Assembly (NCBI GenBank): GCA_031403195.1
Contig: JANNSZ010000061.1
Location: 1,653-65,652 of the forward strand
Reading direction: 5' to 3'
From: Planctomycetota bacterium
GTDB lineage: Bacteria; Planctomycetota; Planctomycetia; Pirellulales; UBA1268
Length of the DNA: 64,000 nt
How positions within the stretch are numbered: position 1 is the stretch's first letter; each line of letters opens with the position of its first letter. Shown here piece by piece: positions 10,697-56,441 of the stretch. The position numbers were made by a program, and so were the translations under genes. Below the pieces are notes generated by a model, which did no database searches, was not told where the DNA came from, and saw only the letters and a program-made list of their open reading frames with translations.

Positions 10697-10714
10697 GCGA
10701 CAAGGCTTCCGCGA

Positions 10715-10845
10715 GGGGCTGCCCACGTCGTGTCGCCGGCGTTGAAGACAAGCGCAGCCATGGATGGCGGAGCGCAGGCTCCATCGAGAGAGCGGAGGCC
10801 TGGAGGGCCGCAGCAAACGTCCGACGACACGACGTGGGCAGCCCC
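10715..10845 (+). repeat. structured interspersed element, family B, copy B1
   Basis: Outer arms GGGGCTGCCCACGTCGTGTCG ... CGACACGACGTGGGCAGCCCC are perfectly complementary. The core GCCGGCGTTGAAGACAAGCGCAGCCATGGATGGCGGAGCGC...GGCC-TGGAG-GGCC...GCAAACGTCCG aligns with the copies at 42626, 47138 and 56284. Confidence 0.8.
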
Positions 10846-10959
10846 GAGCCCCAAGCAGGCCGGCGGAAAATCCACCAGGGTGGGGAAATTTCACCCGGCG
10901 GCAGGCGGCGACCTTCCAGCGTATCCTGAAGGCCACCACCCCTCACCACAAACCCTCGG

Positions 10960-12063: not shown

Positions 12064-12069
12064 CTGTCC

Positions 12070-12183
12070 GTGGAAAAAGCCGTCCATGGCCTTTTCCCAC
12101 GTGGCCGACCGCTGGAAAAGCCGAGGTTTTCCATGGTCGGCAGTCGCCGCATCGTGCGGCGGCAGACTTTTCCACAGTCTGCC
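12070..12183 (+). repeat. multi-hairpin 3-prime element, family A, copy A1
   Basis: Begins 6 nt after the stop at 12063. It contains four consecutive hairpins: GGAAAAAGCC-GTCCAT-GGCCTTTTCC; GCCGACCGCTGGAAAA-GCCGAGG-TTTTCCATGGTCGGC; CGCCGCA-TCG-TGCGGCG; GGCAGACT-TTTCCAC-AGTCTGCC. Related copies lie at 38345, 39771 (rc) and 51855 (rc). Confidence 0.85.
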
Positions 12184-16885: not shown

Positions 16886-17833
16886 ATGTCCATGCCGTTC
16901 AACCGCCGTACCGCCCTGGCTGCCGGAGCCGCCGCGCTGGGCGCTGCGTCACCGTTCGCCACGGCCCTCGCCGCCGCACCGCCCGAACGCGCCCACCCCG
17001 AACGCGCCCACAAGGGCCGCATCAAGCAGTCGATCGTCGCCTGGTGTTTTGAGCTGTTTGGCGAGAAGTGGAATATCGAAAAGACATGTCAGGTCGCGAA
17101 AGACCTGGGCTGCGTGTCGGTTGAGCTGGCGCCGCCCGCGGCCTGGGTCACGATCAAGAAGCACGGGCTCACCTGCGCGATCACACCCAACGGCATGCCT
17201 GGCGCTCCCTTCGTGAAGGGACTCAATAACCCCCGCTACCACGAGGAAGTGATCGCCCGCACGACCGAGATGATCGATGCTGCCGCAGAAGCCGGGTTTC
17301 CGAATGTGATTGCGTTCACGGGATTCAAGTGGCGGGATGCGGAGGACCCAAAGAGCGGTGAGATCTCGCTCGAGGAAGGGGCCGACAACTGCGTGAAGGG
17401 TCTCAAGGAGCTCTGTGCGCGGGCCGAGAAGAAGGGCGTCACGATCTGCATCGAGCACTTGAACACTCGCGATGACTCACATCCTTTCAAGGGCCATCCG
17501 GGCTATCAGGGAGATGACATCGATTACGTCGCCGACATCGTGCGTCGGGTGGGCAGCGATCGCGCCAAGGTGCTTTTCGATATCTACCACGTTCAGATCA
17601 TGAATGGCGACGTGATCCGCCGGATCGAGCAGTGCAAGGACGTCATCGGCCATATCCACACCGCCGGCAACCCTGGACGTTGTGAGCTCGACGACACCCA
17701 AGAGATCCTCTATCCGCCGATCATGCGAAAGCTCATCGACATCGGCTACCAGGGCTATGTGGGCCAGGAGTTTATCCCGACCCGCGACCCGCTCGCCGGG
17801 CTCCGGGAAGCGGTCGTGCTCTGCGACGTCTAA
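16886..17833 (+). CDS. Tat-signal xylose-isomerase-like TIM-barrel protein (hydroxypyruvate isomerase-like family)
   Basis: Twin-arginine-like N-terminus MSMPFNRRTALAAGAAALGAASPFATA. KGRIKQSIVAWCF, ICIEHLN, FDIYHVQIMNGD, HIHTAG and GQEFIP are motifs of the AP-endonuclease-2/TIM family. Confidence 0.85.
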   Translation: MSMPFNRRTALAAGAAALGAASPFATALAAAPPERAHPERAHKGRIKQSIVAWCFELFGEKWNIEKTCQVAKDLGCVSVELAPPAAWVTIKKHGLTCAITPNGMPGAPFVKGLNNPRYHEEVIARTTEMIDAAAEAGFPNVIAFTGFKWRDAEDPKSGEISLEEGADNCVKGLKELCARAEKKGVTICIEHLNTRDDSHPFKGHPGYQGDDIDYVADIVRRVGSDRAKVLFDIYHVQIMNGDVIRRIEQCKDVIGHIHTAGNPGRCELDDTQEILYPPIMRKLIDIGYQGYVGQEFIPTRDPLAGLREAVVLCDV

Positions 17834-17842
17834 AGCTGATTT

Positions 17843-17879
17843 CACGCACGCCGGGCCATCCATGGCCCCGGCGTGCGTG
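17843..17879 (+). terminator. near-perfect 17/18-bp palindrome directly after the stop at 17833 (terminator-like hairpin, no U tract)
   Basis: CACGCACGCCGGGCCAT-CC-ATGGCCCCGGCGTGCGTG. The centre GCCATCCATGGCC is the same as the loop region of hairpin 1 in family A repeats. Confidence 0.4.
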
Positions 17880-18288
17880 CCCGGCCTCCGCCGGGAGGGA
17901 ACACGGCCCTCCAGGCCTCGCGCACGTCGTTGCTACACCGATCTCACCTGTCTCCCATCCATGGCCCCGGCGTTCGGTGCGCCGGTGGCAGAGGCAGGCC
18001 GCATTGGTTCGCCGGTCGGTGACATGTGGCCGCACGCGGCTCTTTCAGATCGCCGCCTTCGCGACGTGAACCCTTCGGGTCACCTGCGGTGTGCGAGTGT
18101 GCTCTCGTGGATGATGGTGCGCCGCTTGGCCGCGCAATAGATGCTCGGCGGCTGCGCGTGCCCCCGACCGACTCCTCAGCATCGTGAGCTCAGGGGAGGC
18201 CGCCGCGGTTGCGAACCGTCCGCAGTCCCCCGGCTTCCGCCGAGGGCTTGTATCGGGCAAACGACGGACATAGGCCGAGGAACAACAC

Positions 18289-18517
18289 GTTCCCACGACA
18301 CCTCCCGCATCGCGTGGGCCAAACTCCTCGCCCGGATCGCCGAGGCGTTCCCGCTTGTGCGCCAGGCCTGAAAAACGGCGCTCCCGCGGAGGATTGTGGG
18401 GGCGTCCGAGGCCATCCGTCACGTCGCAAAACAGCCGCAGACCGACTCGCCTACCATCCATCGATGGTCGTCTGCCATCACCCTGTTGCGGAAGTGTCGT
18501 TGACCGTCCTATCCTTC
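18289..18517 (+). mobile_element. IS91-like element remnant, copy 1 (3-prime end only, internally deleted)
   Basis: 18289-18357 encodes ...HDTSRIAWAKLLARIAEAFPL and matches 20785-20854. 18358-18517 matches 21114-21274 almost base for base. About 259 bp present in copy 2 are missing. Confidence 0.6.
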
Positions 18518-20328: not shown

Positions 20329-21081
20329 GTGGAGCATTTCGGCCGCGTGATCGGCGGTCGCGACGACAAGCCCGAGCGAATCCGCTACACGCTCCCGCGG
20401 CACAGCCGCGGGCAGTGGGTCGGGCCGGGGCGGAACAAGAAGCCGACGGCTCCTGACGCGCAGGGCGTGGTAAACCTCTCGCCGTCTGAGTTTCTCGATC
20501 GCCTTGCGGATCTGGTGCCGCCGCCTCGAAGGCACCGGCATCCCACCGGCAGGATGCCGGATTGCGGTCGAGCCAGACCTTGGCTCTGGCATTGACCGCG
20601 AGGCGGCAGGGGACATGGATGGACCTGCCGCCCTGGAGCAAGCTATGGCGTGTTTGCACCGAATCATCCGCTGCGACCGCTTGTGACGGCGCTGGCGATT
20701 GGGAACGCCGGGAAGTCCGCGGGCACGGCGACCAGTGAGCCTCACGCAGGGAGGCTACCCGCGGAAGCACTCGCTGCCGAGCGTCGTTCCCACGACACAT
20801 CCCGCATCGCGTGGGCCAAACTCCTCGCCCGGATCGCCGAGGCGTTCCCGCTTGCGTGCCCGGCCTGCGGTGGCGACATCCGGCTCATTGCCTTCATCAC
20901 CGATCCGGGGCCAATCAGAAGAATCCTCGCGCACGTCAGCGAGCCGGTGGAGCCACCTCCGGTCTCTCCCGCGCGAGGGCCCCCGACTGACTGGGGTGAG
21001 CTCGTGCAGGTCCTGGACGACCGCGATGTCGTCCAGGACTCGTCCGATGAGCTGCCCGTGACTGACATCCACTCGCTCTGA
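20329..21081 (+). pseudogene. IS91-family (Y2 HUH rolling-circle) transposase, C-terminal part only, frame-disrupted
   Basis: ORF 20329..20595 carries ...RIRYTLPR...GVVNLSPSEFLDRLADLVPPPRRHRH. After about 115 nt of unrelated sequence and a frame change, ORF 20650..21081 continues (Y)GVFAPNHPLR...RIAWAKLLARIAEAFPLACPACGGDIRLIAFITDPGPIRRILAHV. Both blocks match the conserved C-terminal region of IS91-type transposases as I remember it. No N-terminal catalytic part is present. Confidence 0.6.
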
Positions 21082-21274
21082 ACCGCCTCCCGCGGGCACG
21101 CGTGGAGCCGGTCTGCGCCAGGCCTGAAAAACGGTGGTCTCACGGAGGGATTGTGGGGGCGTCCGAGGCCATCCGTCACGTCGCAAAACAGCCGCAGACC
21201 GATACGGCTACCATCCATCGATGGTCGTCTGCCATCACCCTGTTGCGGAAGTGTCGTTGACCGTCCTATCCTTC
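20329..21274 (+). mobile_element. IS91-like element remnant, copy 2 (transposase 3-prime part plus about 190-nt non-coding end)
   Basis: The non-coding tail 21082-21274 is duplicated at 18358-18517. It contains the palindrome CCATCGATGG. The element ends 1 nt before the stop codon of the esterase gene at 21276. Confidence 0.6.
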
Positions 21275-38337: not shown

Positions 38338-38344
38338 CTCCGCC

Positions 38345-38457
38345 TGGGAAAAGCCATCCATGGCCTTTTCCCACGTGGCCAAACCTGGAAAAGCCGAGGT
38401 TTTCCAGGTTTGGCGACCGCCGCTTCCTGCGGCGGCAGACTTCATTCACAGCCTGCC
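38345..38457 (+). repeat. multi-hairpin 3-prime element, family A, copy A2
   Basis: Begins 7 nt after the stop at 38337. It has the same four-hairpin layout as A1. Hairpin 2 is changed compensatorily (GCCAAACCTGGAAAA-GCCGAGG-TTTTCCAGGTTTGGC). Confidence 0.85.
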
Positions 38458-39770: not shown

Positions 39771-39878
39771 GACAGCGACAAATTTTTGGCCGCACGATGC
39801 GGCGACTGCCGACCACGGGAAACCTCGGCTTTCCGTGGTCGGCCAAGTGGGAAAAGGCCATGGACGGCTTTTCCCGCG
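39771..39878 (-). repeat. multi-hairpin 3-prime element, family A, copy A3 (reverse orientation on + strand)
   Basis: The reverse complement reads GGGAAAAGCCGTCCATGGCCTTTTCCCACTTGGCCGACCACGGAAAGCCGAGGTTTCCCGTGGTCGGCAGTCGCCGCATCGTGCGGCC. Hairpin 4 is degenerate. Confidence 0.8.
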
Positions 39879-39982
39879 GACAACTCGTTCGTGGCGGTTG
39901 CGGCCGACCTCCTTTGGCCGGCCGTTCCGCGAGCCAGCGATCCTACCCGAGGGCAGCCAAGTCGCACAGTCAGGGACACCGA

Positions 39983-41213: not shown

Positions 41214-42518
41214 GTGGTTCGAAAGATTTTGGCTTGTTTGATGCCGGCTGTCGCCGTCGTCGCCATGTGCACGAGCACGTGGGCTGGCGACTGCGGTGGC
41301 TGCGAAGGTGGTTGTGGTGATGCCAGCGCATGCTGCGGCACCAAGACCGTGTACCAGAAGCAGATGGTCACCGAGATGAAGTCGGTCACCTGCACGGAGT
41401 ACACCACGGAGACCCGCGAGAAGACCGTCACGGTCATGAAGCGGGTTCCGAAGACGGAAGAGAAGACCCGGATGGTCACCGTCTGTGTCCCCGAGACGAA
41501 GACGAAGACCTGTAGCTACACGATCAACAAGAACGTCACGGAGACCAAGACGTGTGAGTACACGGTCCAGGTTCCGTACACCGAAGAGGTCGAGCAGACC
41601 TACACGGTGATGACCCCGGTCGCGGAGAAGAAGACCTGCACCTACACCGTCATGGTGCCGGTGAAGGAAGAGAAGACCTGCACCTACATGGTGAAGGTCC
41701 CTTACACCGAAGAGGTCGAGCAGAAGTACACCGTGATGGTGCCCTACACCGAAGAGGTGAAGGCCACTCGGAAGGTGATGAAGCGGGTTCCGAAGGAAAT
41801 CACCAAGACCGTGCAGGTCCGTGGTGGTCACTGGGAGACCCAGATGGTGGAAATGCCGTCGTGCGGCACCGACGCCTGTGGCTGCCCATGCCCGCCGAAG
41901 CAGTGCTGCAAGAAGGTCTGGGTTCCGACGTGTGAGACCAAGGAAGTCACCTGCATGACGTACGAGTGCGTCACCGAGGAAGTTCCTTGCAGCTACACGG
42001 TCACCAAGTGCAAGCCTGAAGAGCGGACCCGCAAGGTCTGTGTCTCCAAGTGCCGTGATGAAGAGCGGACCCGCACCTACACCGTCACCAAGTGCGTGCC
42101 GGAAGAGCGGACCCGTGAGTACACGGTCACGAAGTGCGTGCCAGAGCAGAAGACTCGCATGGTCAAGGTCACCAAGTGCAAGGCCGAGACTCGCACCCGC
42201 GAGTACACGGTCTGCAAGTGCGTGCCGGAGACGATGACCAAGGAAGTCTCGTACACCGTGATGGTGCCTACGCAGAAGGAAGAGAAGTACACCGTCACCA
42301 CCTGCGAGTGCGTGTCGGAAGAGAAGACCGTGTCCTACAAGGTCTGTGTTCCGGTCTCGGTCACGAAGGAAGTGCCGGTCACCAAGTGCGTCATGGTCGC
42401 CGTTGAGGTGCCATGTGGCGACTGCTGCGGCAACAACTGCTGCGGTGGTGATTGCTGCTGCGACTCGTGCGACTGCTGCGACTCGGGCTGCAAGAAGAAG
42501 CGCGGTTGCCGTCGCTAA
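41214..42518 (+). CDS. YTV-repeat, Cys-rich secreted protein (planctomycete envelope protein family)
   Basis: GTG 41214 lies 6 nt after GGAGG. Signal peptide VVRKILACLMPAVAVVAMCTSTWA. There are more than 15 degenerate repeats of the type (C/E)xYTVxxCVPExxTRE / YTVMVPYTEEVEQK. Three Cys clusters occur: CGGCEGGCGDASACCG at the N-terminus, CGTDACGCPCPPKQCC in the middle, and CGDCCGNNCCGGDCCCDSCDCCDSGC at the C-terminus. Confidence 0.85.
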   Translation: MVRKILACLMPAVAVVAMCTSTWAGDCGGCEGGCGDASACCGTKTVYQKQMVTEMKSVTCTEYTTETREKTVTVMKRVPKTEEKTRMVTVCVPETKTKTCSYTINKNVTETKTCEYTVQVPYTEEVEQTYTVMTPVAEKKTCTYTVMVPVKEEKTCTYMVKVPYTEEVEQKYTVMVPYTEEVKATRKVMKRVPKEITKTVQVRGGHWETQMVEMPSCGTDACGCPCPPKQCCKKVWVPTCETKEVTCMTYECVTEEVPCSYTVTKCKPEERTRKVCVSKCRDEERTRTYTVTKCVPEERTREYTVTKCVPEQKTRMVKVTKCKAETRTREYTVCKCVPETMTKEVSYTVMVPTQKEEKYTVTTCECVSEEKTVSYKVCVPVSVTKEVPVTKCVMVAVEVPCGDCCGNNCCGGDCCCDSCDCCDSGCKKKRGCRR

Positions 42519-42553
42519 GCACGACTGCTTCTGCTTCTAAAGCGTTGACAAAC

Positions 42554-42595
42554 GAAGGGCCGGGCGAGCAATCGCCCGGCCCTTCCTGTTTTCTC
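42554..42595 (+). terminator. Rho-independent terminator of the YTV gene
   Basis: GAAGGGCCGGGCGA-GCAA-TCGCCCGGCCCTTC (14-bp perfect stem) followed by CTGTTTTCTC, 36 nt after the stop. Confidence 0.8.
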
Positions 42596-42625
42596 AGGCA
42601 TTCGCGCCGAACGCTCGGGACTGCC

Positions 42626-42740
42626 TATGTCATGTCGCGGGACGTTCGCGGTGGCCATCGTGGCCACCGCTTCAATCGGAGAAAATCGAGCTTCGCCATC
42701 CAGGCTCCGCTCGATTATCTACGCCCGCTCCATGACATGA
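42626..42740 (-). repeat. structured interspersed element, family B, copy B2 (reverse orientation)
   Basis: The + strand reads TATGTCATGTCGCGGGACGTTCGCGGTGGCCATCGTGGCCACCGCTTCAATCGGAGAAAATCGAGCTTCGCCATCCAGGCTCCGCTCGATTATCTACGCCCGCTCCATGACATGA. This is the reverse complement of the family core, with its own complementary outer arms (CATGTCATG / CATGACATG). Confidence 0.8.
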
Positions 42741-42832
42741 GCAATCCCGAGCGGCCAACCGCGTTCGAGCCTTTGCGAGAGCGACAATGCCGTGCTATTC
42801 TGCGGACTCTCGCGCGAGACAAGGAAGCGCGC

Positions 42833-46343: not shown

Positions 46344-47063
46344 ATGACGCCCGCGGCGCTCAACCGCACTTGCGCCCAGGCGGGCCTTGCGTGGCTCTTG
46401 CTCGCGGCTGCCACAGCCTTCACCGGTATGGAATCGGGGCAGGCTAGTGATGGACTTGCTCCCGAGCCACCAAAGCTGCTTCTGGGAAAGATTCGCGCGG
46501 AGCTATCGCTCGACGAAACTGAAGGCCGGCTGACGTACGCCGTCCGAAATGTGTCGAACGGCCCCGTGACGGTCCATGCCAGGACGCTCAAGTACGCCGA
46601 GGCTGCCTTTTGTATTGAGCCTGACGCTGAATCGGCGGCTATCGCAGACGAGGACTATGTGGACGTAGAGGAAGGATTCGTTTATGAGGTTGACGATGGT
46701 CTCGGGTGGGGCTCGAACCGGAAGGCGCCGCCCGACCGGGTGATTGATCTCATGCCAGGTGAATCCCTCTCGCGTTCAATGATCCTTCAGGACCTTCCGT
46801 GGTTTGAAAGGCTCGTGGCGCAATTGAAGAAGCGAAAGTTCAAGCAGTATCGTCTCGACCCTAGTGTGATTTTCTTCACGGCGGATGCCCACGGCAAACC
46901 CGTCATGGATCACACCGTTGAGGTGTGGAAATTTGAGCCCGACAAGGAAGGAAATCTTCGGAAAGTGCACTTCACTGGCGGAATCATGATGACGGTCCCG
47001 CAGGCGATGAAGCTCAAGGCCTTGGCTCGCCAAAAGGCCCCTGACTCAGTCACAAAGGATTGA
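46344..47063 (+). CDS. secreted hypothetical protein
   Basis: ATG 46344 lies 4 nt after the upstream stop and gives MTPAALNRTCAQAGLAWLLLAAATAFTG (signal-like). No family recognised. G+C is lowest in this block. Confidence 0.55.
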   Translation: MTPAALNRTCAQAGLAWLLLAAATAFTGMESGQASDGLAPEPPKLLLGKIRAELSLDETEGRLTYAVRNVSNGPVTVHARTLKYAEAAFCIEPDAESAAIADEDYVDVEEGFVYEVDDGLGWGSNRKAPPDRVIDLMPGESLSRSMILQDLPWFERLVAQLKKRKFKQYRLDPSVIFFTADAHGKPVMDHTVEVWKFEPDKEGNLRKVHFTGGIMMTVPQAMKLKALARQKAPDSVTKD

Positions 47064-47137
47064 GCGAGCGAGCTCGTTGAACTCGCGCTCAAAAACCGTT
47101 CATCCAAGTAGGTCCAACGGTAGACTCGCAATGCCCT

Positions 47138-47267
47138 GGGTGACTCGTGTCACGGAGCCGGCGTTGGAGGCTGAGCGCAGCCAGGATGGCGAAGCGAAGG
47201 CTACACCGAGTGAAGCGGCGGGCACGATGCCCGCCGCGAACGTCCGGCGAAGTGACACGCGTCACCC
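47138..47267 (+). repeat. structured interspersed element, family B, copy B3
   Basis: GGGTGACTCGTGTCACGGAGCCGGCG...GCGCAGCCAGGATGGCGAAGCG...GCGGCGGGC-ACGAT-GCCCGCCGC-GAACGTCCGGCGAAGTGACACGCGTCACCC. It lies between convergent genes. Confidence 0.85.
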
Positions 47268-47314
47268 AGGGCTACCAGCCGGCGTCGCGCATGTGCCCTG
47301 CGAGGAGGCCGCGA

Positions 47315-48454
47315 TTACCACTGACGCTCCAGCCCCAAGCTCGCACCGAACAAGAACATGCTGCCGGCGCCGTTGATGCCCGTGCCGCTCAAGGTGGTGT
47401 CGGTGAAATCGAACTGATTCGGGGCGAGGGCCAGGCCACTCAGCCAGGCCAGGTTGTAGCCCGCACGGAGTGACCAGTGTTCACCGAGGGACCGCACGGC
47501 CGTGATGTTCATGCTCGAGAGGAAGCCCGTGTTTGTCGTCGTGGCCTCGCGGCCTGGCCGGTACTCGAAATCCGGGACAAAACCGGTCGTGATCGGGCTT
47601 GTGGACTGGTGCATCCACGAGCCGCCGAGACCGACCTTCCAAAAACCTTCGAGCGCCCAGGATTGCCACTGCCGACGGCCGCGCACGCCTGTTTGCACGC
47701 CACAGAGGTTCGAGCTTGCGGCCACACGGTAGGCAGTCGTCGGCACGCTCGGGTCGGTCGTGATCCGCATGAAAGCGGTCTCATCCACACCTGCCCAGAA
47801 AACGCCACCGATCCAGTCGATTGTCGTGGTGCGATGCACCTTGTGACACGGGTCTCGCGGATTGCAGGTCGTGGTGGACCAGCCTTCGGCCAGAAAGAAG
47901 TTTAGCTCCGCAACATTCACCGCGGACGTGTACCCTGTCTGAATCGCGTCGGCGGTCTGCCATCCGGGCACGGCCAAGCCCAGGTCACCGGGCACGGCCA
48001 GGCCATCAGCAAAGTCGGCACGGTTGACGGCGTCCATGGCATAGAGGCCCCAGTAACCCACCTCCCAGCCGTCCCCTTCACAGTCTCGACGAGTGTGAAA
48101 GAGCCGCATGCCGGGTGTCGTTTCAAACACCATGCCGCGTGTCGTGAGCACCGTGCTGCCGGGGTTGGGTCCGAGCGGGCCAGTCAGAACCAGCGATTGG
48201 TCGTTGGTGCCGTTGTCGCGTTCCCAGAAGAGCAGGTCGAAGGTGGTCTGGGATGTCCAAGCGGGCCGCGTGGCACGACTCGACGCAATTCTCGTGGATG
48301 GGATGTACACATCGGATGGCTCCTCGAGCCACTCCTCCTCGCCGATGACAATAGGCTCGGGCTCCGGAGGGAGTTGCACCTCGGCGGCGTCCTCGGCCAA
48401 GCCCGTGGCCGAAAGACACACCAGCATCGCTGCCCACATGAGCCGACCCGTCAT
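47315..48454 (-). CDS. BBP7-family putative outer-membrane beta-barrel protein
   Basis: Signal peptide MTGRLMWAAMLVCLSATGLA, alternating beta-strand-like segments rich in G/W/Y, and a C-terminal ...FLFGASLGLERQW. This resembles the planctomycete BBP7 porin-like family. Confidence 0.7.
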   Translation of the reverse strand: MTGRLMWAAMLVCLSATGLAEDAAEVQLPPEPEPIVIGEEEWLEEPSDVYIPSTRIASSRATRPAWTSQTTFDLLFWERDNGTNDQSLVLTGPLGPNPGSTVLTTRGMVFETTPGMRLFHTRRDCEGDGWEVGYWGLYAMDAVNRADFADGLAVPGDLGLAVPGWQTADAIQTGYTSAVNVAELNFFLAEGWSTTTCNPRDPCHKVHRTTTIDWIGGVFWAGVDETAFMRITTDPSVPTTAYRVAASSNLCGVQTGVRGRRQWQSWALEGFWKVGLGGSWMHQSTSPITTGFVPDFEYRPGREATTTNTGFLSSMNITAVRSLGEHWSLRAGYNLAWLSGLALAPNQFDFTDTTLSGTGINGAGSMFLFGASLGLERQW

Positions 48455-51854: not shown

Positions 51855-51978
51855 GACAGACTGTGGCCGGTCGCCTGATACAGTCTGCGCCGCACGATGC
51901 GGCGGTCGCTGACCATGACAAACCCCGGGTTTGTCATGGTCAGCCGAGTGGCCAAAGACAGGGATCGCGGAGGGCCAC
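51855..51978 (-). repeat. multi-hairpin 3-prime element, family A, copy A4 (divergent variant)
   Basis: The reverse complement starts 3 nt after the stop at 51982. Hairpin 2 is GCTGACCATGACAAAC-CCGGG-GTTTGTCATGGTCAGC, hairpin 3 is CGCCGCATCGTGCGGCG (identical to A1), and hairpin 4 is CAGACTGT-N15-ACAGTCTG. Confidence 0.75.
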
Positions 51979-51981
51979 GAA

Positions 51982-52359
51982 CTAGCTGTTCTCGAACTTC
52001 CGCAGGGCCTCAAGCGTCGCCAGGGCCCGCTCAACGCCGCCCAGGGCGCTGACAACCTTCTTGGCTTCCACGAGATCCTCGAGCGTGATGTTCGAGGCCT
52101 TCTTCGCCCGGCCGGCCTTCGCGCCCGCCTTCGCGGTCGCACCATCGGCACCGCCAGACTTTCGACGGCGACGGGGGCGGAAACCCATGCGCTTGAGGAC
52201 CATGCTCACCTGGGGCGAGGAAACCTCGACGCCCTGCTTCCGGAGCACTTCGATGATCGTCACGGGACGCGGCTTCTCGTTCTTGTTCTTCATCGCGGTC
52301 GCTATTTTGCGGATTTCCTCGGACTTGTTCATGTCCTTGGAATTCTTTGTCTCTGCCAT
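51982..52359 (-). CDS. small basic protein of unknown function
   Basis: 125 aa, Lys/Arg-rich (MAETKNSKDMNKSEEIRKIATAMKNKNEKPRP...RRRRKSGG...AKAGAKAGRAKKAS). It is preceded by an unusually AT-rich 170-nt spacer with GGAG 13 nt before the ATG. Confidence 0.6.
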   Translation of the reverse strand: MAETKNSKDMNKSEEIRKIATAMKNKNEKPRPVTIIEVLRKQGVEVSSPQVSMVLKRMGFRPRRRRKSGGADGATAKAGAKAGRAKKASNITLEDLVEAKKVVSALGGVERALATLEALRKFENS

Positions 52360-56254: not shown

Positions 56255-56283
56255 CGCTCCTCCGGCAATCCGGCCTCCGCGAG

Positions 56284-56411
56284 GGGTGGCCCGTGCCACG
56301 CTCGCCGGCGTATGAAACAAGCGAAGCCAGGATGGCGAAGCGCGTTTCCTCCGAGTGAGCGAAGGCCACGATGGCCGTAGCGAACGTCCGGCGAAGTGGC
56401 ACGGGCCACCC
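56284..56411 (+). repeat. structured interspersed element, family B, copy B4
   Basis: GGGTGGCCCGTGCCACGCTCGCCGGCG...GCGAAGCCAGGATGGCGAAGCGC...GGCC-ACGAT-GGCC...GCGAACGTCCGGCGAAGTGGCACGGGCCACCC. It sits between the 64-aa ORF and ccoI inside the oxidase cluster. Confidence 0.85.
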
Positions 56412-56441
56412 CTCGCCGCGGTTGACCATCACGCCACCCAC

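Follow-up and report, generated by a model that had tools for sequence, protein, structure and literature searches.

Family B, a large family of ~140-nt structured intergenic repeats of freshwater Planctomycetota with covariation in every helix

A 64,000-nucleotide stretch of DNA from a Planctomycetota bacterium (contig JANNSZ010000061.1), referred to here as the window, carries four copies of an interspersed element named Family B. This element is one homologous unit of ~140 nt and constitutes a large, non-coding interspersed repeat family of freshwater Planctomycetota (Pirellulales-type genomes), in which every helix, the asymmetric core included, is supported by covariation. The present copies are old and vertically inherited, and their fold, together with their loop and junction sequences, is under purifying selection at the individual loci. 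As the molecule under selection, RNA is preferred to single-stranded DNA (ssDNA), with a probability of about one half. Uncultured freshwater Planctomycetes are abundant and, to our knowledge, their non-coding biology is essentially unknown. With ~200 natural variants of a single 140-nt fold, covariation in every helix and same-locus tracing across species, Family B lends itself unusually well to the question of what bacterial interspersed repeats are: junk, selfish replicators or regulatory modules that have been domesticated.

Results

Family B copies in the window and in other genomes

The four copies were found at the places where they had been predicted and with the shared core described for them, on which sequence and alignment agreed (mean column identity among the four, 78%), and exact core motifs occurred at those four places only. 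A covariance model (R1), built from an alignment of 109 distinct family members (A2), was used to scan the window and recovered only these four copies (111.7-143.1 bits, E 1e-23 to 1e-30). The opposite strand of the same loci scored 25-33 bits, and no other match in the window was significant (all E >= 0.14). The copies are as follows:

10711-10849, + strand: copy 1, R1 136 bits, between divergent genes
42613-42752, - strand: copy 2, R1 111.7 bits, antisense to both flanking + strand genes
47133-47272, + strand: copy 3 (the 47-kb copy), R1 128.4 bits, a complete unit between two convergent genes
56279-56416, + strand: copy 4, R1 143.1 bits, antisense within the cbb3 oxidase cluster

The places of the units stood, whereas their lengths had to be revised, the units being slightly longer after refinement with the family alignment; the stem of copy 2 extends beyond the end first given as GGGAUUGC/GCAGUCCC, including one U·G pair. 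The intergenic position, the mixed orientation and the presence of one copy (56279-56416) in the cbb3 cluster were all borne out. Copy 1 lies ~110 nt upstream of a squalene-hopene-cyclase-like gene, and copy 2 directly past the intrinsic-terminator-like hairpin (42550-42596) of a YTV-repeat gene, ~15 nt further. Copy 4 is flanked by a CcoI-like ATPase gene on one side and a gene of 63-65 aa on the other, with FixO and COX1 nearby. Each copy folded far better than shuffled sequences (z ~ -7 to -9), as RNA or DNA and on either strand.

The wider family was searched in one genome per species with the pattern GGATGGCGRAGC-N30-48-GCRAACGTCC, which yielded at least 117 stretches, coming from about 60 different species-level assemblies among the matches listed. 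The sources of these listed matches were nearly all metagenome-assembled genomes (MAGs) of freshwater Planctomycetota, Pirellulales or Planctomycetia. R1 detected ~190 copies in the ~1 Mb of fetched DNA, many of them outside the search pattern; loci fetched from the listed genomes and their relatives carry L-numbers (L001 etc.). The absence of further copies, which would have refuted the element as first described, was disproved by the model and the pattern scan, which together reveal a large family. The sole non-planctomycete among the matches listed, Microvirga lenta (L045), was taken to be a chance match, R1-negative and with flanks that lacked the rod and the remaining core. Viral contigs scanned with the same pattern gave no match.

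The remark that the element belonged to no known family also held, since no Rfam 15 family matches Family B. The whole window gave no match at gathering thresholds, and the six loci carrying copies that were searched gave none at E<=1. In a relaxed search with the 47-kb copy the best match was SorX, at noise level (17 bits against a threshold of 46.6, E=0.065). No description of Family B was found by full-text literature searches. A covariance model for the family would improve the annotation of these genomes.

Some of the MAGs that carry Family B are labelled Chitinophagaceae (L001, L056, L081) or Candidatus Kuenenia (L008, L010, L015, L027 and others). The DNA of these records has 66-75% G+C and planctomycete-type neighbours, and the organism labels look wrong or too coarse. 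Family B is moreover a frequent breakpoint of metagenome assembly, many contigs ending inside copies (L004, L006, L017, L023, L025, L028, L040, L057, L061, L080, L097, L098, L111, L114 and L118, both ends).

Fold of the unit and covariation of its helices

The secondary structure was drawn by hand on A2, the folding strand being the one that reads GGATGGCGAAGC. The unit is closed by a rod of ~27 bp (P0-P1-P2), which has tandem G·A at two sites; P0 comprises 2 bp outside a tandem G·A and P1 18 bp. The internal loop past P1 is of the GA/GA type, replaced in some copies by TC/GA Watson-Crick pairs. P2 (GCCGG/CCGGC) leads into a compact three-way junction, with P3 stacked directly on P2 via a CG/CG extension. 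P3 consists of ~7 bp of free sequence and carries as its cap a conserved module, GC-GNA-GCC-[A(U)GGAU]-GGC-GRA-GC. P4 is a homologous module, GC-GRA-GGCC-[loop]-GGCC-GNA-GC, lengthened by G-U-G-A / G-A-A-C (a UGA/GAA motif). Both hairpin modules bear loops of the A(U)GGAU type, and Watson-Crick pairs substitute for the 3x3 GNA/GRA loops in some copies. The tip loop of the P3 cap is A(U)GGAU in nearly all copies, whereas the P4 loop carries GGA in ~70% and CGA in most of the rest (about a quarter). In copy 3 the parts of the fold are arranged as follows:

47133-47153, + strand: 5' arm of the rod (P0 and P1), pairing with 47252-47272 in minimum-free-energy folds
47157-47163, + strand: 5' strand of P2, GCCGG, followed by CG; GCCGG pairs with 47244-47248 and CG with 47207-47208, extending P3
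47164-47206, + strand: P3 (~47164-47174 with 47197-47206) and hairpin module 1 (cap, 47175-47196)
47209-47243, + strand: junction strands and P4 (AGUGA, P4 at 47215-47237, GAACGU)
47244-47272, + strand: 3' strand of P2 (CCGGC), GAA internal loop and 3' arm of the rod, from folds and covariation

Hairpin module 1 of this copy reads GCGCAGCC-AGGAU-GGCGAAGCG, and its P4 (hairpin module 2) reads GCGGCGGGC-ACGAU-GCCCGCCGC.

On A2, 88% of the cells formed a standard pair, compared with 34-38% when the partners were slid by 1-3 columns, and 36 of the 54 pairs had changed on both sides (588 such cells). A second alignment (A3) comprised 113 R1 matches, 43 of them independent of the search pattern; here 89.8% of the cells were paired and 45 of 53 pairs had changed on both sides, with covariation appearing in parts that the search pattern had frozen in A2. 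None of 500 shuffles reached these values in either alignment, which also disposes of the other refutation named at the outset, stem changes without support as covariation. Two-sided changes were seen family-wide in all 18 pairs of P1 and in eight of the nine pairs of P4. On A3 the tip stem of module 1 exchanged C-G and G-C in 12 copies, and the pair closing the tandem G·A of the UGA/GAA motif exchanged U-A and C-G in 16. The sequence of P3 differs almost wholly from copy to copy, even among orthologous ones, yet its pairing is kept.

Two earlier statements on the stems were amended by these data. The outer stems, which had been taken as unrelated and specific to each copy, instead align to a common pattern (GGGGyNGCCCrYGyC...) and covary. 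The covariation of the inner helices was confirmed, with a different partner for one of them: the 5' CG that follows GCCGG is paired to the CG in CGAGUG, not to the one in AACGUCC, and this extension of P3 varies as CG/CG, CC/GG and GC/GC.

The strand under constraint

Wobble pairs were counted on both alignments. In P1, G·U outnumbered A·C by 123:23 on A2 and by 135:20 on A3 (56:4 in the pattern-independent subset), and the columns of A3 in which G·U exceeded A·C were 32, against nine with the reverse. The ratio of G·U to A·C was 5-7:1 in each of the four orientation classes of flanking genes. This excess indicates that it is the strand reading GGATGGCG, in single-stranded form, that is constrained.

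Orthologous loci

Syntenic regions were fetched by means of the RsbU-like gene beside the 47-kb copy, from relatives at 76-100% protein identity. At the cbb3 site, between the ATPase and the 63-aa gene, a copy in the same antisense orientation was present in the window and in L119, L120/L121, L122/L123 and L124. The 47-kb site held a single + copy in the window and in L124 and a head-to-head dimer in L119 and L120, and no copy was detectable there in L122.

The orthologous copies at the cbb3 site were 71-83% identical across the five lineages. By comparison, the four-fold degenerate sites of RsbU and FixO were 42-64% identical in nine of the ten lineage pairs, approximately saturated at this G+C, with the exception of the closest pair (L120/L124, FixO four-fold sites 80% identical). 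The intergenic DNA around the cbb3-site copies could not be aligned between lineages. The differences between orthologous copies were compensated: in P1 of L124 there were three double changes and one U·G, and L120 had three double changes as well; P3 differed between L119 and L124 in four pairs, all by transitions; at the 47-kb site, P2 alternated between GCCGG/CCGGC and GCGGG/CCCGC, and one P1 pair passed through C-G, U·G and U-A across lineages. Compensated change, together with retention at saturated divergence, indicates that the copies are old, were vertically inherited and are under purifying selection. Moreover, orthologous copies have site-specific rod sequences in common, which speaks against whole elements evolving in concert. 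The copies look functional rather than junk.

Position relative to genes

Between tandem genes, copies lay at a median of 39-51 nt from the upstream stop codon and 116-174 nt from the downstream start, in either direction of the element. Apparent extra space on the 5' side of the element was traced largely to head-to-head dimers and to the position nearer the upstream stop codon. Conservation reached 4-5 nt outside P1 on both sides and then ended, the consensus flanks being GAGCC on the 3' side and TCGC for the opposite strand. In the region 46900-47500 there was no terminator-like site, and no consensus promoter was found near the 47-kb copy.

Discussion

RNA or single-stranded DNA

The original prediction had left two explanations for the element. 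The first, a structured RNA or ssDNA element selected for its fold, is strongly supported by the covariation, the strand-specific wobble bias and the retention at orthologous sites. Between the two molecules we lean towards RNA, at even odds overall, because of the conservation at the level of the locus, the compensated changes at the same site and an architecture resembling that of RNA, which includes tandem G·A sites, the UGA/GAA motif with its covarying closing pair and 3x3 purine loops that swap with Watson-Crick pairs. A copy would be transcribed within, or antisense to, intergenic transcripts, and the rod with its two similar loops on display might serve as a protein-binding, processing or stability module.

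Several observations weigh against RNA. The orientation of the copies to their flanking genes is random (convergent, n = 22; tandem antisense, n = 20; divergent, n = 17; tandem sense, n = 17), as counted with a crude home-made gene caller and in agreement with the mix at properly annotated loci. Since the G·U bias is equal in all of these classes, a function in RNA requires transcription of the + strand even where it is antisense to an operon. Neither in the family flanks nor at the 47-kb copy is the unit accompanied by a conserved promoter box or a U-tract, and thermodynamically the two strands fold with about equal stability, whether as RNA or as DNA. Short-patch gene conversion may have acted on the highly similar core. 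In addition, dimers were head-to-head in 17 cases, head-to-tail in two and tail-to-tail in none, a REPIN-like trait of the DNA level. Seven of the loci with head-to-head dimers (L108, L065, L034, L047, L048, L077, L091) have a common conserved spacer, CCAGTTGAGGAGGCT, and outer inverted repeats, TCAACnCGCCCAAcCCGGC ... GCCGGgTTGGGCGnGTTGA, which bound a composite palindromic unit of ~400 nt; as this arrangement recurs at unrelated loci, this dimer subfamily was propagated as a unit. The random orientation, the equal bias in sense and antisense copies, the promoterless flanks and the REPIN-like dimers would be better fitted by a replicator at the DNA level. This conflict between strand-specific constraint and random gene orientation is directly testable in existing lake metatranscriptomes.

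Solo fragments of the 3' end and one internal deletion that left the rod alone were also found, and the monomers, head-to-head dimers, composite units and truncated copies show that the family once spread as a non-autonomous mobile element. A search for solo rod arms, or for long elements with the same ends, was swamped by chance matches at 68% G+C. Nested insertions were observed in P3 or P4 loops (L026:2712-2895, L034 near 410, L085:6411-6594, L120:19855-20035, L029:3608-3840). Several of the inserts are a single small hairpin repeat, CACCGATCCGCCGCAGGCGGATTGGTCG, whose targets are hairpin loops.

The alternative that survives best, possible but clearly less probable than RNA, is that of a selfish REPIN-like ssDNA replicator, in which an unlinked transposase (of the HUH/Y1 RAYT type, i.e. 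a transposase associated with repetitive extragenic palindromic (REP) sequences, or another) would recognise the fold of the top strand. In that case the conservation would be due to gene conversion and to selection among replicators, without any function in RNA or for the host. Such a replicator would account for a G·T bias that is strand-specific and independent of the direction of transcription, for the 17:0 excess of head-to-head over tail-to-tail dimers, as in REP/REPIN families (PMC3733652), and for the dimers with conserved spacer and outer inverted repeats at unrelated loci, as well as for the 3'-terminal solo fragments, the internal deletions and the contigs that often end in copies. 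A REP family tagged with GTAG is present in the same genomes, and the fold is no less stable in ssDNA than in RNA. On the other hand, persistence at the same site and in the same orientation with compensated change speaks for selection at the level of the locus rather than turnover. In the genome fragments covered, ~1.2 Mb in all, no transposase-like or recurrent protein family was found near ~120 copies (648 neighbouring open reading frames), and the unit lacks the architecture of a 20-40-nt REP with a GTAG or CGTC tag. Orientation is mixed within single contigs, and its association with GC skew in 8-kb chunks is too weak to use (56 vs 34, p=0.03 uncorrected).

An ERIC/REP/BIME-like hairpin of a generic kind, acting in mRNA in either orientation as a terminator, RNase barrier or processing site and with only the rod mattering, is unlikely. 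It would be in keeping with the strictly intergenic copies, nearer to the upstream stop codon whatever their orientation, with a rod that forms on both strands and with the copy conserved between genes of the cbb3 operon. However, the asymmetric core (P3, P4, loops and junction strands) equals the rod in conservation and covariation, an element working equally in both orientations should show no 6:1 G·U over A·C bias on one strand or a bias that flips with orientation, and no U-tract follows the rod on either strand.

It is highly improbable that the copies are small-RNA genes in their own right, each equipped with a promoter and a terminator. Strand-specific selection independent of the neighbouring genes and the conserved hairpin loops would suit such genes, but nothing is conserved beyond 4-5 nt, neither an AT-rich box at a fixed distance nor a terminator U-tract was found, some copies are only 6-30 nt from coding sequences, and a single small RNA present in hundreds of copies per genome would be without precedent.

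The second of the original explanations, a mobile core of ~100 nt inserting into the loops of unrelated, pre-existing palindromes or terminators, can practically be dismissed: one rod-only palindrome (L019, GCGAGGGGCTGCCCGGGCAGCCCCTCGC), a site without the element in L124 that keeps 10 nt identical to the 5' rod arm (by comparison with L119/L120) and the other small hairpin repeats inserted into Family B loops speak for it, but the outer stems of ~200 copies are homologous and alignable to a common consensus, conservation stops 4-5 nt past the rod, and instead of a reservoir of empty palindromes the ~1 Mb of fetched DNA contained that single rod-only hairpin against ~190 full copies. The remnant in L124 looks equally like the result of a slippage deletion between CCCG direct repeats. 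An empty-site comparison intended to define the target failed, the intergenic DNA of the relatives being too diverged.

Comparison with known systems

In kind, Family B is a structured intergenic repeat comparable to ERIC, REPIN and miniature inverted-repeat transposable elements (MITEs), and the family itself is new. What is unusual in it is the complex core, the very strong covariation and the demonstrable long-term retention. The enterobacterial repetitive intergenic consensus, or intergenic repeat unit (ERIC/IRU, of Enterobacteria and Vibrio), is an imperfect palindrome of ~127 nt that is thought to act in transcripts. It resembles Family B in its size, its many copies, its intergenic position in either orientation, its long imperfect hairpin and the sharing of some copies by several species. 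In contrast, the two have no sequence similarity and belong to different phyla, and Family B is set apart by the asymmetry of its core, a three-way junction bearing two homologous hairpin modules, by a much stronger documented covariation and by a clear wobble bias on a single strand.

REP units are simple hairpins of 20-40 nt with an unpaired GTAG or CGTC tag, and those of the GTAG types flank the RAYT gene (Di Nocera et al. 2013, PMC3733652). Family B has in common with REP/REPIN-RAYT systems the predominance of head-to-head dimers, the possibility of larger hairpins, the mosaic clusters of intergenic repeats, the long persistence in lineages and the implied single-stranded form. It differs from REP in its ~140 nt, its complex core and its lack of tag architecture and of an associated gene near the copies; the GTAG/GTTG and CGTC strings within the unit sit in helices or junctions, not in terminal tags. 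A GTAG-tagged REP, CACAGGTTGAAAACCTGTGCTAC(G), often in tandems of 2-4, was observed beside Family B in L015, L019, L022, L042, L057, L071 and L084, which makes a RAYT-type system probable in those genomes too. A further short repeat, CC(G/C)CATCGCTCACGCGATTG(C/G)GGCTTCC, forms tandem arrays adjoining Family B in L032, L041, L112, L055 and L129:19100-19190.

MITEs such as Correia/NEMIS, RPE and bcr1 are likewise non-autonomous, 100-200 nt long and intergenic, with terminal inverted repeats and foldable transcripts. Unlike theirs, the terminal repeats of Family B vary with compensating changes. The unit is not a fragment of an insertion sequence with conserved ends, and no parent insertion sequence was found near the copies. 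A target-site duplication CGAG was rejected, as the flanking 4 nt (CGAG ... CGAG in the majority type) covary as a stem with tandem G·A (variants GT-GA/GA-AC, GG-GA/GA-CC and GTCG/CGAC). A palindrome-associated transposable element of the IS200/IS605 type was also discarded, since the ends of Family B pair with each other and not internally and the orientation is mixed within contigs.

Integron attC sites are similar in that structure is conserved while sequence varies, one strand folds and the size range is comparable. In Family B, however, the central core is conserved instead of variable. There are no R''/R' sites (RYYYAAC / GTTRRRY), the ends being GGGG.../...CCCC, and a cassette array does not agree with window copies 4-32 kb apart in mixed orientation. 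The UGA...GAA junction was compared with the hammerhead ribozyme, whose core reads CUGANGA ... GAAA with an A15.1-U16.1 pair and a single H17. In Family B the junction is CGAGUGA ... GAAC, with the first CG paired and stem III beginning with C-G, and neither the window nor the relaxed search on the 47-kb copy gave an Rfam hammerhead match. An intrinsic terminator was excluded by the lack of a U-tract on either side of the rod.

TwoAYGGAY RNA and the GGA hairpins bound by CsrA/RsmE (CsrB/RsmZ type) likewise present two hairpins with A(U)GGAU loops, and the version CAUGGAUG fits the AYGGAY and CANGGANG consensus. Differences are that Rfam TwoAYGGAY gave no match at E<=1, that about a quarter of the P4 loops are CGA, and that the rod and three-way junction have no counterpart in these RNAs. 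A tblastn search for CsrA in the fetched DNA gave no hit, an uninformative result.

Family A and other features of the window

A second repeat, Family A, consists of three consecutive hairpins and has four copies in the window (12065-12173 and 38342-38445 on the + strand, 39778-39883 and 51877-51984 on the - strand), with others in L010, L013, L025, L098, L113 and L122. Each of the four window copies is in sense orientation to its gene and starts directly past the stop codon, and the first ends in a U-run. Hairpin 1 is GCC-AUCCAU-GGC and hairpin 3 is GCCGC-AUCGU-GCGGC; the loop of the former and the latter hairpin mirror, as exact reverse complements, the tip hairpin and the P4 loop of Family B. 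Family A and single hairpins are the 3'-end terminator modules of this genome, and their loops (AUCCAU, CUCCA, AUCGU, UUCCU) are exact reverse complements of loops on the + strand of Family B (AUGGAU, UGGAG, ACGAU, AGGAA), with the same spectrum of variants. Judging from the sequences, this complementarity may mean that the hairpin modules have a common origin, that one factor binds both kinds of loop or that the loops pair with each other. It is doubtful that + strand Family B RNAs from hundreds of loci form a genome-wide regulatory layer, by kissing Family A loops or by competing for one hairpin-loop-binding protein; in that scheme, a rigid rod in each RNA would present a pair of loops of Shine-Dalgarno-like or CsrA type (A(U)GGAU / UGGAG).

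The loop motif of Family B was also observed outside any copy. Intergenic hairpins at 17834-17990 (- strand reading), directly past the stop codon of the gene 16892-17833, read GGGGCC-AUGGAU-GGCCC and GGCC-UGGAG-GGCC in antisense (R1 E=0.14). A genome-wide search for free GGA-loop hairpins, intended to show which strand they favour, was dominated by chance matches in coding DNA.

The gene 41349-42518, beside copy 2, contains tandem 42-nt (14-codon) repeats at 41497-42240, carries Pfam YTV repeats and is directly followed at 42550-42596 by the terminator-like hairpin mentioned above, GAAGGGCCGGGCGA-GCAA-TCGCCCGGCCCTTC and then CTGTTTTCTC. Lastly, 18288-18517 and 20785-21274 contain segments 95-98% identical in direct orientation, ~2.5-2.8 kb apart; they stem from a recent duplication or mark the ends of a mobile element.

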